From the UHGV virus genome UHGV-0153413: a DNA stretch of 14,300 nucleotides, one strand, 5' to 3'. The DNA comes from a virus. Positions 8,493 through 11,198 of the stretch are shown piece after piece. Each line of letters opens with the position of its first letter. Position 1 is the stretch's first letter. The position numbers and the translations under genes were made by a program. A model generated the notes under the pieces. It did not search any database, was not told the DNA's origin, and worked only from the letters and a program-made list of their open reading frames with translations.

Positions 8493-8726
8493 CAGCATTC
8501 TGGCTACTTGCTTAGCCAGTTCCGCCAACTCCTCGTCTTCAACACCCCATTCAAGAACAGCCAGAAGCATTCCCATTTTGGGGATGAAGCTGTCTTTCCA
8601 TCGCGAAATTTGCGATTCATTAACCCCTAACGCGTCGGCAACCTTTCGCTGACCACGTACAGCAATTCGATTCAGGATGTTGCTTGTAATTGCATTCGCT
8701 TTCTTGCGAGTACTTGTAAGTTGCAT
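8448..8726 (-). CDS. cII: Transcriptional activator CII
   Basis: ESQISRWKDSFIPKMGMLLAVLEWGVEDEELAELAKQVARML closely matches lambda CII (QISRWK...SMLLAVLEWGV). ATG 8726..8724 preceded by AAGGAAATACTTACAT, as in lambda. The 121-aa track ORF is an upstream extension. Confidence 0.85.
   Translation of the reverse strand: MQLTSTRKKANAITSNILNRIAVRGQRKVADALGVNESQISRWKDSFIPKMGMLLAVLEWGVEDEELAELAKQVARMLTKEKAPKNGEFFEA
8681..8714 (+). promoter_or_regulatory. Candidate pRE with CII-binding direct repeats TTGC-N6-TTGC
   Basis: TTGCttgtaaTTGC at 8681-8694, inside the cII 5' coding region on the opposite strand, followed 14 nt later by a weak -10-like AGTACT. Orientation is toward cI through cro. Confidence 0.4.
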
Positions 8727-8784
8727 ATGTAAGTATTTCCTTAACAAATAAGAAGTTATGCGCATCAACTTGTGCGCGTTGTAT

Positions 8785-8828
8785 TCCCGCATTTCGGCGG
8801 GAATGAGGACCATGACTGTTAAAGAGCG
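8785..8828 (-). promoter_or_regulatory. nutR (boxA CGCTCTTTAA plus boxB hairpin) between cro and cII
   Basis: Minus strand CGCTCTTTAAcagtcatggtcctcatTCCCGCCGAAATGCGGGA. The boxB hairpin (6-bp stem UCCCGC/GCGGGA) is identical to the one in nutL. Confidence 0.6.
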
Positions 8829-8834
8829 GTGTTA

Positions 8835-9029
8835 CTATTTGTTTTTCTTGTTGCTTGGGAAAGGACGAACTTCCTCTCCAATCACACTGCCATCAGGCTT
8901 TACCGTAACCATAATGTTACGGCCTGCCAGAATGGCCTTGCTGATAGCGCACTGGATTACACCAAAGTCACTGGCTGCTTTAGCCTGTCCATGGATTTTG
9001 GCGTAATCGGCAAGTGTCATTCGAATCAT
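8835..9029 (-). CDS. cro: Cro repressor
   Basis: [62 protein letters not shown] parallels lambda Cro ([21 protein letters not shown]...DGSVYAEEVKPFPSNKK). ATG 9029 with RBS GGAGAG. Confidence 0.8.
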
Positions 9030-9058
9030 ATGCACTCTCCGTTATTAACCATGAACAA

Positions 9059-9126
9059 AGAATACTACAGGTATTCAAAACAATCAATACTCAGGGTATT
9101 TTTAGTTTAAGTACCTTAGCTATTAG
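9059..9126. promoter_or_regulatory. OR region: three operator dyads with divergent pR (toward cro) and pRM (toward cI)
   Basis: Operators gaatactacaggtattc (9060-9076, perfect dyad), aatactcagggtatt (9086-9100) and the weaker aagtaccttagctatta (9109-9125), centres 24-25 bp apart. pR on the minus strand: -35 TTGATT (9087..9082), 17 bp, -10 TATTCT (9064..9059). pRM candidate -10 TATTAG (9121-9126) only 9 nt before the cI ATG with no SD, so cI is probably leaderless as in lambda. Confidence 0.65.
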
Positions 9127-9135
9127 AATTAAGCT

Positions 9136-9852
9136 ATGGAAAATAAAAAATCACTGACGACAGAACAGCTCGAAGACGCTAAGCGGCTTAAGGCTTTGTA
9201 TGAGTCAAAAAAGAAAGAATTGGGAATAACCCAATACTCAATCGCTGATGAACTGGGTATCACCCAAGGAGCGGTAGGGCATTATCTTAATGGCAGAAAC
9301 GCGCTAAACGTTGAGGTTGCATCTGGTTTTGCACGACTGTTGCAAGTCTCAATTGCTGATTTTAGCCAGTCAATTGCTGCCAAGGTTGCAGAACAGGCAG
9401 AAAGCCTTAAGAGCGATGCCAACGTAAGGTATGCAGGGGAATACAGAGCAGGAAAGAGGTATCCGGTGTTAAGCAGTATCCAGGCTGGCTCGTGGTGTGA
9501 AGCATGCGAACCATACACCATTAAAGACATAGATGTTTGGCTTGAGTCTGACGCGCATATTCAAGGTAATGCGTTTTGGCTTAAAGTGGAAGGTGATTCA
9601 ATGACGGCACCGGTTGGGTTAAGCATTCCAGAGGGAACATTCGTTCTTTTCGATACCGGAAGGGAGGCGATCAACGGCAGCTTGGTCATAGCAAAACTTT
9701 CTGACTCTAACGAAGCAACATTCAAGAAGCTGATAATCGACGGCGGAAATAAATACCTCAAGGGACTTAATCCTGCATGGCCTCTCGTGCCAATCAATGG
9801 AAACTGCAAGATTATAGGCGTTGCAATTGAGACAAAACTAAGGCTGGTTTGA
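9136..9852 (+). CDS. cI: CI repressor (HTH-XRE N-domain plus S24 LexA-like autopeptidase C-domain)
   Basis: 238-aa ORF. HTH region QYSIADELGITQGAVGHYLNG, Ala-Gly (SIQAGSW) candidate cleavage site, catalytic Ser in GDSM and Lys in FKKL. Divergent from cro across the operators. Confidence 0.9.
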   Translation: MENKKSLTTEQLEDAKRLKALYESKKKELGITQYSIADELGITQGAVGHYLNGRNALNVEVASGFARLLQVSIADFSQSIAAKVAEQAESLKSDANVRYAGEYRAGKRYPVLSSIQAGSWCEACEPYTIKDIDVWLESDAHIQGNAFWLKVEGDSMTAPVGLSIPEGTFVLFDTGREAINGSLVIAKLSDSNEATFKKLIIDGGNKYLKGLNPAWPLVPINGNCKIIGVAIETKLRLV

Positions 9853-9869
9853 TCACGCAAGGGGCGATT

Positions 9870-10238
9870 ATGGTTGGAACCGCTATAGCAAGCTTTTTTG
9901 GGATGTTGGCAATCTCGACAATTTACGTCTTAGCGCATGCTTTTATTGCGAAATCTCTATCAGAAAAAATAAGCCAGGCTTGGGCGCATAGATCAGCTCG
10001 TTTCATGATTCTTGTGATCATAGCAATACAAGGGATATCTGCATTTATCCTCTATGTATCAAGCTTATACCTATTGTATCAAGGCGCGACATTTACGCCT
10101 TACACCAGTGATTACGGAACTCTATACGATGGTAGTGAAGACATCACTGTGGCTTGGATCGTCTTTGGTTTATCTATGGCCGTGTCTGTTGTAGCAGACA
10201 TCATTAAGGTAATTCTCGTCTTAACCTTCGCTGACTAA
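9870..10238 (+). CDS. Predicted 3-TM membrane protein in the rex position (cotranscribed with cI)
   Basis: ATG 9870 with RBS AAGGGG (a TTG at 9849 overlapping the cI stop is an alternative start). Three hydrophobic helices. Sits between cI and OL/pL, where lambda has rexA-rexB. No recognisable similarity to RexB as I recall it. Confidence 0.6.
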   Translation: MVGTAIASFFGMLAISTIYVLAHAFIAKSLSEKISQAWAHRSARFMILVIIAIQGISAFILYVSSLYLLYQGATFTPYTSDYGTLYDGSEDITVAWIVFGLSMAVSVVADIIKVILVLTFAD

Positions 10239-10323
10239 CCCATAATCCCGGCAGCAATAGCTATCGGGATCCACTTCACATATCCCGCATAAAAATCACT
10301 GAACAAGCAGACAGCGAAAAAAT

Positions 10324-10418
10324 AAATATCCTTTGTATTCATTTGTTTATCATTATTTCATCAAAAATAAATACCTTGGGTATTTACACAATAAAATACC
10401 TACAGTATTCTTTAGCCA
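10324..10418 (+). promoter_or_regulatory. OL operators and pL promoter
   Basis: Operators aaataccttgggtattt (10369-10385) and aaatacctacagtattc (10394-10410) share half-sites with OR; a possible distal site aaatatcctttgtattc (10324-10340). pL: -35 TTTACA (10383-10388), 17 bp, -10 TATTCT (10406-10411). The downstream sequence ATCAGCAGGACGC matches the start of the lambda pL transcript as recalled. Confidence 0.6.
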
Positions 10419-10457
10419 TCAGCAGGACGCTGGAAGCCAAACGGAACAGATTGGCAG

Positions 10458-10498
10458 GCTCTTTAACATTGATGGGATTGTCCCGCCGAAATGCGGGA
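10458..10498 (+). promoter_or_regulatory. nutL (boxA GCTCTTTAA plus boxB hairpin)
   Basis: gctctttaa (10458-10466), 14-nt spacer, boxB tcccgc/cgaaat/gcggga (10481-10498), identical to nutR boxB. Lies about 40 nt downstream of the predicted pL start. Confidence 0.6.
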
Positions 10499-10765
10499 AC
10501 CAAAGAGTAGTTGGCTTTGGGGTGTGGTGAAGCCAGCTAGTCACTGGCAAGTGCTTACCTACTGTTGAGCGGTGAAGCGCTCCCAACGCTAGCAATAGCG
10601 TGGACGAGATGGGGAGCCGCGGGCGATAAGGCCGCCATAACGCGCACGTTGTCGCATGGAAAAATCGCTGGGGTGCCGGTTATACCCCTCCGAATGAGAC
10701 TCAACAAGCTGGAGCTAGACTACCAGCCACCACACCACCAAAGCTAATCATCTGAGGAACAGAAA

Positions 10766-10885
10766 ATGTTAGACATCATGACCAACCCAATTCTCGGTGG
10801 TTTAGTTACCACATTCGCCATCTGCTTCGGTTTCACTATCTGGTCTGAAGTAGATGACTGGATGTGGGAACGCAAAAACAAATAA
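10766..10885 (+). CDS. Small single-TM peptide ORF (39 aa) in the N leader
   Basis: Hand-translated: RBS GAGGAA 8 nt before ATG 10766, MLDIMTNPILGGLVTTFAICFGFTIWSEVDDWMWERKNK, stop TAA 10883-10885. One hydrophobic helix then a charged tail. Below the ORF-track size cut-off. Confidence 0.4.
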   Translation: MLDIMTNPILGGLVTTFAICFGFTIWSEVDDWMWERKNK

Positions 10886-10925
10886 TCATCGACACACAAG
10901 GATGTGCACCTACCCGGAGGTCAAC

Positions 10926-11198
10926 ATGACAGTAGTCATTACATATCTGGCTGACGATAACACCAGAAATCGCCGCAGAGCACGCAGACAGGCTCAACGT
11001 GAACAGGCAATGCAAGAGCAGCGACTGGCGCGAAAAATTGCGCTAAAGCTCTCTGGTTGCGTCAGAGCAGATAAAGCAGCATCACTCGGAAGCCTTCGCT
11101 GCAAGAAGGCAGATGAATGCAGCGGAAGTATTTGCCTGCCAAACGTAGCCATTTACGCGGCAGGCTACCGGAAATCAAAACAACTGACAGCGAGGTAA
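10926..11198 (+). CDS. N: Antiterminator N (arginine-rich motif)
   Basis: ATG 10926 with RBS GGAGG at 5 nt. N-terminus MTVVITYLADDNTRNRRRARRQAQREQ carries an arginine-rich boxB-binding motif like lambda and P22 N. First gene after pL/nutL. The 114-aa track ORF is an upstream extension. Confidence 0.75.
   Translation: MTVVITYLADDNTRNRRRARRQAQREQAMQEQRLARKIALKLSGCVRADKAASLGSLRCKKADECSGSICLPNVAIYAAGYRKSKQLTAR

Follow-up and report, generated by a model that had tools for sequence, protein, structure and literature searches.

Positions 8700 to 10500 of the window (the whole 14,300-nt stretch of viral genome UHGV-0153413 that was analysed) very probably, with a probability of about 0.93, hold an HK620-type immunity module (immHK620, the same as the immunity of mEpX2) that works as a lambda-style bistable switch. 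The module sits within a mosaic lambdoid/P22-like early region. It is an already known immunity region, a textbook-style lambdoid switch that is real but ordinary. Three of its genes are needed for what follows:

8835..9029, minus strand: cro, 64 aa, lambda-Cro fold family (Pfam PF09048 Cro, E = 3.6e-26)
9136..9852, plus strand: cI, 238 aa, with N-terminal HTH_3 (Pfam PF01381) and C-terminal S24 peptidase (Pfam PF00717) domains
9870..10238, plus strand: hkaS, a 122-aa hydrophobic protein (GenBank hkaS; only a sub-threshold Pfam match)

Identity and extent of the module

Between 8800 and 10500 the window is 99.6% identical in nucleotides to coliphage HK620 (AF335538) over 1701 bp. Cro is identical to HK620 Cro at all 64 residues, and CI at 237 of 238, with Ala66 here and Thr66 in the HK620 record. 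The same CI is found, identical over 238/238 residues, in mEpX2, HF4s and Stx2c_EH1904; it is one residue off in HK620, HK630 and HK140. All six operators (OR1-3 and OL1-3) are those of HK620. OL matches exactly, and the sole difference in OR is the spacer base at 9080 (A versus G). The HK620 record (AF335538 / NC_002730), whose pR, pL and nut sites the window shares, annotates OR1-3, OL1-3, pR, pL, pRE, nutL, nutR and tIMM at matching positions; for transferred annotation, the window coordinate is the HK620 locus (L001) coordinate plus 7299.

The module is also found in mEpX2, HK630, HK140, HF4s, HZ41, phi296, phi367 and Stx2c phages, with 98.5-99.6% identity over 8800-10500. At least 80% of the 1701-bp query is covered in 16 phage records and in 146 of 5426 complete E. 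coli genomes (~3%). OR1-3 and OL1 are identical in seven phages, and OL2 differs by one central-spacer base, in HK140 only. Variable columns among the seven number 48 of 1701, too few for a purifying-selection test on the operators.

CI has the features of a lambda-type repressor: an HTH with a LexA-like S24 autoprotease, an Ala-Gly site and a Ser/Lys dyad. It is 43% identical to lambda CI, its Ala117-Gly118, Ser155 and Lys197 line up with their lambda counterparts, and the conserved Asp of helix 2 (IAD) is visible. hkaS occupies the position of lambda rex and is predicted to be co-transcribed with cI.

Outside the immunity module the window is a mosaic unlike HK620, with ~320 extra bp in the N leader, and the best whole-window matches span only ~63% of it. 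Many heteroimmune phages match the window from 10411 on, and this position is therefore taken as the module boundary (annotated bsq5 in CUS-3). The antitermination site nutL lies just beyond it:

10457..10498, plus strand: nutL, with boxA GCTCTTTAA (10458-10466) and boxB TCCCGCCGAAATGCGGGA (10481-10498), from sequence and GenBank

A 235-nt folded stretch at 10513-10747 was considered as a mobile element or a new RNA, and this was rejected; both in its closing stem and in where it lies, it matches the large N-leader hairpin of the lambda type, and in other prophages it always lies between pL/nutL and N. In Rfam searches no family reached the gathering threshold in the window, and 10400-10950 gave no hit up to E = 1.

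Operators, early promoters and the predicted switch

Between the divergent cI and cro genes lie three operators, which overlap pR and pRM. A second cluster of the same specificity, OL, lies at pL, where the third site is ambiguous. This is the arrangement of a lambda-type switch, and its elements, apart from pRM and the third left site, are as follows:

8703..8742, plus strand: pRE, including the CII-binding site (TTGC-N6-TTGT), placed by means of the GenBank annotation of HK620
8784..8828, minus strand: nutR, with boxA CGCTCTTTAA (8828..8819) and boxB hairpin TCCCGCCGAAATGCGGGA (8801..8784), from sequence and GenBank nutR
9052..9087, minus strand: pR, with -35 TTGATT (9087..9082), a 17-nt spacer and -10 TATTCT (9064..9059), from sequence; GenBank pR has the same coordinates
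9060..9076, no strand: OR1, GAATACTACAGGTATTC, exact pattern match and GenBank OR1
9085..9101, no strand: OR2, CAATACTCAGGGTATTT, exact pattern match and GenBank annotation
9109..9125, no strand: OR3, AAGTACCTTAGCTATTA, degenerate, GenBank annotation
10369..10385, no strand: OL2, AAATACCTTGGGTATTT, exact pattern match and GenBank annotation, overlaps the pL -35
10383..10418, plus strand: pL, with TTTACA (10383-10388), a 17-nt spacer and TATTCT (10406-10411), from a promoter scan and GenBank pL
10394..10410, no strand: OL1, AAATACCTACAGTATTC, exact pattern match and GenBank annotation, contains the pL -10

The exact pattern AATAC-N5-GTATT occurs four times in the 14.3 kb (0.01 expected; none of 200 shuffles reached four), at 9061-9075 (OR1), 9086-9100 (OR2), 10370-10384 (OL2) and 10395-10409 (OL1), and nowhere else in the window. 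With one mismatch allowed there are five sites (0.33 expected), the fifth at 10325-10339. The operators differ from those of the classical phages. The best OR/OL matches to the consensus of lambda (TATCAC-N5-GTGATA), 434 (ACAA-N6-TTGT) and P22 (ATTTAAG-N4-CTTAAAT) have 5/12, 2-3/8 and 4-5/14 mismatches, compared with 0/10 for AATAC-N5-GTATT; the lambda and P22 sequences were taken from annotated records.

The outer 6+6 bases of OR1 are symmetric. Its centre is at -68 relative to the cI ATG and at about -16 relative to the pR start, predicted near 9052; the pR -10 lies inside it, and the -35 overlaps the edge of OR2. The OR2 centre, at -43, is 1 bp farther from the cI ATG than in lambda (-42), and in relatives it ranges from -40 to -44 with a mode of -43. 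OR3, which adjoins cI, has two core mismatches (AGTACCTTAGCTATT), is centred at -19 as in lambda and overlaps the pRM -10. The -10 hexamers of pR and pL each consist of the last five operator bases plus T. Most of what the original prediction had said of this region is thus borne out: a half-site family common to OR and OL, the lambda logic of OR with its degenerate dyad at pRM, operators distinct from those of lambda, 434 and P22, and a common TATTCT embedded in OR1 and OL1. Its coordinates for the OR2 17-mer have been corrected to 9085-9101.

Cro is 63% identical to lambda Cro, its gene has a strong Shine-Dalgarno sequence (-9.3 kcal/mol), and the nutR boxB downstream is identical to that of nutL. 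In its recognition helix, Q-C-A-I-S-K, position H1 is Gln, H3 is Ala and H6 is Lys. In the published Cro code (PMC6649833), as applied in this analysis, these residues predict A2, A5 and C6, and the operator half-site shows A2, A5 and C6. That an HK620-type half-site obeys the code is a modest gain.

The steps of the switch are inferred from the sequence, the geometry and homology to lambda; the identity with HK620/mEpX2 and the presence of the elements are observed directly. Both CI (HTH plus S24 autoprotease) and Cro (lambda-Cro fold) would bind 17-bp dyads built from the half-site R-A-A-T-A-C-Y. In the lysogenic state, CI dimers would occupy OR1 with OR2 and OL1 with OL2, burying the TATTCT -10s and touching the -35s of pR and pL, so that both early operons would be off. 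CI at OR2 would adjoin the weak pRM and probably activate it, and Cro, or high CI, at OR3 would shut off cI. Induction of the prophage would follow from RecA-stimulated self-cleavage of CI at Ala117-Gly118, in which Ser155 and Lys197 would take part. pRE, the establishment promoter, would yield a cI transcript with a long leader. The literature searched contained no binding, footprinting or transcription start data for HK620-type CI or Cro, and nothing specific on the immunity typing of HK140 or HK630 or on a ts/clear mutation.

Candidates for the third left operator, and relatives in other genera

Two sites compete for the third position at OL:

10347..10363, no strand: OL3 according to GenBank, TTATCATTATTTCATCA, poor match to the half-site consensus
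10324..10340, no strand: operator-like site, unannotated in GenBank, AAATATCCTTTGTATTC, 9/10 core matches, 45 bp from OL2

The site at 10325-10339, with 9/10 core positions, is a much better operator match than GenBank OL3, which has no core match within 3 mismatches. It can tentatively be suggested, as the less favoured reading, that the functional third left operator is 10324-10340 and not GenBank OL3, or that OL has four sites with ~25/22/23 bp spacing. Among the seven phages compared, 10324-10340 is invariant and GenBank OL3 varies at 10361 and 10363, but at ~3% divergence the lack of any substitution over 17 bp does not reach significance. Morganella relatives likewise have two good OL sites 45-47 bp apart; the 45-bp spacing from OL2 is, however, unlike lambda. 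The position of GenBank OL3 is homologous to that of OL3 in relatives L004, L007 and L008, where a good site lies 21 bp from OL2, and in these relatives (L004 and L007) no operator match, with up to 3 mismatches allowed, is seen at the counterpart of 10324-10340. The HF4s record annotates a small minus-strand ORF across 10324-10340.

Related CI/Cro modules with the QGAVGHY core in CI are found in prophages of Serratia, Pectobacterium, Yersinia, Pantoea, Proteus, Morganella, Photorhabdus and others, and in the phages Hafnia Pocitis76, Serratia OS31 and Erwinia EhrS_49. The core is kept in all 19 enterobacterial relatives, with S for G in one and two flanking residues changed in another. At least one AATAC-type OR site within one mismatch is present in 18 of the 19, and OR centres at about -67/-43/-19 in 15. 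These relatives differ from the HK620 type in that their CI N-terminal domains are 64-84% identical and the flanking and central operator bases are changed. The joint reading, in which 10324-10340 is a real fourth or alternative CI/Cro operator and QGAVGHY/AATAC is a specificity class that crosses genera, is doubtful. If it were true, the site might be the true OL-OR looping partner, or a regulatory element where the cI-hkaS transcript ends, and prophages of different hosts might, judging from their sequences, cross-repress as members of one class.

pRM and the start of the cI message

The cI mRNA is probably leaderless, a trait that appears to be inherited in the lambda family. The element on which this depends is

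9124..9129, plus strand: probable pRM -10, TAGAAT; the next 6 nt, TAAGCT, lead up to the predicted start at the A of the cI ATG

The lambda pRM has the same layout (TAGATT, TAACGT, ATG). Of 26 relatives, 19 have TAnnnT at -12..-7, in a range that runs from lambda to Pseudomonas prophages. In 20 enterobacterial sequences T-12, A-11, A-8 and T-7 are conserved and -6..-1 are variable. As a prediction, leaderless cI is well supported, because this phasing is kept while the adjoining bases vary. Lambda cI and other repressors are leaderless, with the lambda start at the A of the ATG, and PY54 cI and PaaR2 have been mapped as leaderless (PMC8630535, PMC4488713).

An alternative -10, TATTAG (-15..-10), was rejected; its last base is unconserved in the same 20 sequences (information content 0.07). 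The original prediction had placed the -10 at 9 nt before the ATG, and the conserved bases favour TAGAAT at 6 nt instead. The -35 is poor (TTTAGT or TTAGTT), and an in-frame TAA lies 6 nt 5' of the ATG. As had been claimed, cI lacks a Shine-Dalgarno sequence: its anti-SD duplex energy is -0.6 kcal/mol, compared with a median of -2.4 for random 20-mers and -6 to -10.7 kcal/mol for cro, N, hkaS and the replication genes.

It is unlikely that cI in the lysogen is expressed from a leadered transcript, made from a promoter farther upstream or from a start several nt before the ATG, with ribosomes engaging the short leader independently of a Shine-Dalgarno sequence. In favour of this reading, annotation puts the start of P22 pRM 4 nt 5' of the c2 ATG, TATTAG would give a leader of 2-3 nt, and translation of cI from the pRE transcript has to do without a Shine-Dalgarno sequence anyway. 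The -12..-7 phasing is also broken in Morganella relatives, where the OR3-to-ATG distance is 3 bp shorter and misfits a simple leaderless geometry. Against this stand the exact TAnnnT phasing in the 19 relatives, lambda among them, the unconserved -10 position, and a promoter scan of the plus strand over 9036-9135 in which no alternative promoter was found. The pRM start most probably coincides with the A of the cI ATG or falls no more than 1-2 nt from it, which would make the cI-hkaS mRNA leaderless, like the cI message of lambda. Thus the leaderless part of the original prediction stands as probable, but the trait is not peculiar to this phage, because it is the lambda layout, conserved across the CI family. 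The analysis adds comparative support for that "-10, 6 nt, ATG" layout, out to Pseudomonas prophages.

Comparison with typed phages and with lambda

HK620 was reportedly sequenced and annotated in 2001 by Clark, Inwood, Cloutier and Dhillon (J Mol Biol 311:657). The phage had been expected to define its own immunity group; that expectation fails because cI, cro and the operators are those of HK620, annotated since 2001, and CI is that of mEpX2, so that comparison with known types leads to an already typed group. A new specificity absent from typed lambdoid phages, to which operators unlike those of lambda, 434 and P22 and a nearest classical repressor (lambda CI) only 53% identical in the DNA-binding domain might point, is highly improbable, given CI, Cro and operators identical or nearly so to those of HK620, mEpX2, HK630, HK140, HF4s, HZ41 and two Stx2c phages, the published operator annotation, and the immunity typing of mEpX2 (PMC3442831). 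In that typing mEpX2 forms a group separate from lambda, HK022, phi80, mEp043, mEp213, mEp235 and mEpX1. The discovery value is correspondingly small: the switch elements are annotated in HK620, and through mEpX2 the literature already documents heteroimmunity to lambda, HK022 and phi80.

Lambda and the window share gene order and protein families (cI-OR-cro, OL-pL), 17-bp operators, and pR and pL -10s that fall within OR1 and OL1. In lambda the OR centres are at -66/-42/-19, and in the HK620-type window they are at -68/-43/-19. The half-site is RAATACY in the window and TATCACC in lambda; the two agree at A2, A5, C6 and C7 and differ at positions 1, 3 and 4. The recognition helices differ as well, with QGAVGHYLN in CI and QCAISK in Cro, compared with QSGVGALFN and QSAINK in lambda. 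Where lambda carries rexAB the window has hkaS, and heteroimmunity between the two types has been shown via mEpX2 (PMC3442831).

An HK620-type immunity module

The switch of HK620 type found here is already known. In the immunity region (8835-10418) a control region of 106 bp lies between cro and cI, and a second one lies beyond the small ORF that follows cI.

8835-9029, minus strand: cro, read leftward
9087..9059, minus strand: pR, TTGATT-17-TATTCT
9136-9852: cI, read rightward
9870-10238: hkaS, a small hydrophobic ORF
10324-10340: unannotated operator-like site, AAATATCCTTTGTATTC
10347-10363: OL3 of the GenBank annotation, TTATCATTATTTCATCA
10383-10411: pL, TTTACA-17-TATTCT

Over 1701 bp (8800-10500) the sequence is 99.6% identical to coliphage HK620 (AF335538) and 98.5-99.6% identical to HK630, mEpX2, HK140, HZ41, HF4s, phi296, phi367, 611R6 and two Stx2c-converting phages. 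The module is carried by 146 of 5426 complete E. coli genomes. OR1, OR2, OR3, pR, OL1, OL2, OL3, pL, pRE, tIMM, nutL and nutR are annotated in the HK620 GenBank record, and they coincide with the sites in the window after conversion (window = locus + 7299). The OR regions of the two phages differ by a single base (9080, in the OR1-OR2 spacer) and the OL regions not at all. Cro is identical to that of HK620 at 64/64 residues and CI at 237/238; CI is identical at 238/238 to those of mEpX2, HF4s and Stx2c_EH1904. The mEpX2 immunity group (for the origin of mEpX2, see PMC9836094) is reported to be separate from a phage set including lambda, HK022 and phi80 (PMC3442831). Because cI, Cro and operators are thus of a type already immunity-typed, the original prediction that this phage defines its own immunity group is wrong.

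Residue 66 of CI (window 9331) is Thr in the HK620 record and Ala in the window, HK630, mEpX2, HK140, HF4s and Stx2c_EH1904, as well as in lambda CI. The HK620 sequenced by Clark et al. 2001 was reportedly a temperature-sensitive clear-plaque mutant, and Thr66 may be that mutation. A further match, to the cro/nutR end of the module, lies about 0.8 kb from the end of the Aeromonas phage AP1 record (MT713136.1, 254 kb; 253490-253659 against 8800-8969, 170 bp, 99.4%). The AP1 record seems to be contaminated or misassembled at this point.

Mosaic surroundings and the N leader

The window is a mosaic lambdoid/P22-like early region, ordered lysis, Q and nin, replication genes, immunity module, N and recombination genes, and any single phage record spans at most about 63% of it. 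Position 10411 closes the immunity module, at a boundary sequence annotated as bsq5 in CUS-3; beyond it many heteroimmune phages match.

8784-8801, minus strand: boxB of nutR, TCCCGCCGAAATGCGGGA
10481-10498, plus strand: boxB of nutL, identical (18 nt)
10513-10747: folded stretch of the pL leader
10766-10885: hydrophobic ORF of 39 codons with a Shine-Dalgarno sequence, MLDIMTNPILGGLVTTFAICFGFTIWSEVDDWMWERKNK
10926-11198: N (PF25694)

A boxA, CGCTCTTTAA or GCTCTTTAA, stands before each boxB. N belongs to the HK620/H-19B/21 type, and the interval from nutL to N is about 320 bp longer than in HK620. This addition consists of two parts. The first, a stretch of 235 nt, is GC-rich and strongly folded (MFE -109 kcal/mol, z = -4.1); its closing stem (GGCTTTGGGGTGTGGTG / CACCACACCACCAAAGC) matches the basal part of the large N-leader hairpin of lambda type, although its interior differs and is longer. 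The stretch has no Rfam family and recurs, upstream of N, in 86 E. coli genomes whose immunities are different; in both of the loci inspected it lies, without annotation, between pL/nutL and N. The second part, the 39-codon ORF, is inserted between this hairpin and N and has no Pfam match. Taken whole, 10500-10915 matched nothing in the phage collection; among 5426 E. coli genomes, just 6 match it over its full length.

Operators, promoters and the start of cI

The sites themselves were described correctly in all essentials, and the mechanism put forward is essentially right. There are exactly four copies of AATAC-N5-GTATT in the 14,300 bp (9061, 9086, 10370 and 10395; 0.01 expected), and 0 of 200 shuffles gave as many. 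One mismatch admits a fifth site at 10325 (0.33 expected) and two mismatches recover OR3 at 9110. As described, the strong dyad lies next to pR, where OR1 (GAATACTACAGGTATTC) is fully symmetric in its outer 6+6 bases, and the degenerate one, OR3, adjoins cI. The shared -10 of pR and pL, TATTCT, is embedded in an operator, being composed of the operator's last five bases plus T. Operators of lambda, 434 or P22 type were looked for in OR and OL and none was found, in keeping with the distinctness claimed for this family.

The third left operator has two candidates. GenBank OL3 does not match the 10 core positions (AATAC plus GTATT) within 3 mismatches and is variable among the seven phages aligned for the HK620-type module; three comparison loci (L004, L007, L008) have a good OL3 at its place, 21 bp from OL2. 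The site at 10324-10340 matches 9/10 core positions, is invariant in the seven phages and stands at a distance of 45 bp from OL2. In L004 and L007 no match within 3 mismatches is present at the homologous place, and two good OL sites with a spacing of 45-47 bp also occur in Morganella relatives.

The cI start codon is not in doubt since the N terminus of CI aligns with that of lambda CI; an in-frame TAA stands at -6. The anti-Shine-Dalgarno duplex before cI is essentially nil (-0.6 kcal/mol), compared with -6 to -10.7 kcal/mol for cro, N, hkaS and the replication genes and a median of -2.4 kcal/mol for random 20-mers. The absence of a Shine-Dalgarno sequence was thus correctly described; the -10 was not, the best candidate for pRM being TAGAAT (9124-9129), six bases ahead of the ATG, rather than TATTAG. 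Lambda pRM has the same layout (TAGATT, six bases, ATG), and its transcript is a classical leaderless mRNA (PMC8630535).

This layout was compared in 24 prophage loci from Serratia, Pectobacterium, Yersinia, Pantoea, Proteus, Morganella, Photorhabdus, Pseudomonas and others, with CI N-terminal domains 42-84% identical to that of the window. When the 20 enterobacterial sequences are anchored at the ATG, T-12 is found in 19, A-11 in 18, A-8 in 19 and T-7 in 14. Positions -6 to -1 are unconserved, and position -10, the critical last base of TATTAG, has an information content of 0.07. With lambda and five Pseudomonas prophages included, TAnnnT stands exactly at -12 to -7 in 19 of 26 sequences and at -13 or -11 in three; it is at -9 solely in one Morganella lineage. 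A constant phase combined with six spacer bases that vary freely is the pattern predicted if transcription starts at the A of the ATG, and because of it the pRM transcript is probably leaderless, or has a leader of at most 1-2 nt (roughly three chances in four). A leaderless cI would be a trait inherited within the family rather than something special to this phage. PY54 cI and PaaR2 have been mapped as leaderless (PMC8630535, PMC4488713), and for P22 the annotated start of pRM precedes the c2 ATG by 4 nt. No start-site mapping for the HK620-type module was found in the searchable literature.

In the Morganella loci L017, L018, L019 and L021 (about 1480-1503), OR3 lies 3 bp closer to the ATG, which follows GGTATTACTATAGT, and TAnnnT is at -9 or -6, not -12. 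This lineage differs in either start codon or promoter.

Specificity among relatives and compared with lambda

By sequence comparison, the HK620 specificity appears as one member of a broad class, because relatives share helix core, AATAC sites and OR spacing. The recognition-helix core QGAVGHY is kept in 19/19 enterobacterial relatives (one with S for G; another with two flanking residues changed), one or more OR sites of AATAC type (up to one mismatch) in 18/19, and the -67/-43/-19 OR spacing in 15/19. Hafnia Pocitis76, Serratia OS31 and Erwinia EhrS_49 are phages of the same set. The Pseudomonas relatives (L022-L026; N-terminal domains 42-51% identical) have the helix QGSFSHYLN, in one case QGSLSHYLN, GC-richer dyads at homologous positions (e.g., AATGC-N5-GCATT in L022) and TAnGGT followed after 6 nt (7 in L022) by ATG. 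Helix and half-site look as if they co-vary over a conserved leaderless layout.

Identity to lambda CI is 43% for the whole of CI (HTH_3 plus Peptidase_S24) and 53% for its N-terminal domain; in the alignment, Ala117-Gly118, Ser155 and Lys197 fall on the cleavage site and catalytic dyad of lambda CI. Operator centres lie at -68/-43/-19 from the cI ATG, against -66/-42/-19 in lambda. The half-site consensus, R-A-A-T-A-C-Y (12 half-sites), has A2, A5, C6 and C7 in common with lambda TATCACC but differs at positions 1, 3 and 4. Cro falls in PF09048, the lambda Cro family; it has 63% identity with the lambda protein and carries the recognition helix Q-C-A-I-S-K (Gln H1, Ala H3, Lys H6). In the published 'evolutionary code' of Cro, this combination specifies A2, A5 and an opposite-strand G6 (PMC6649833), and as applied here the HK620-type half-site appears to fit that code.
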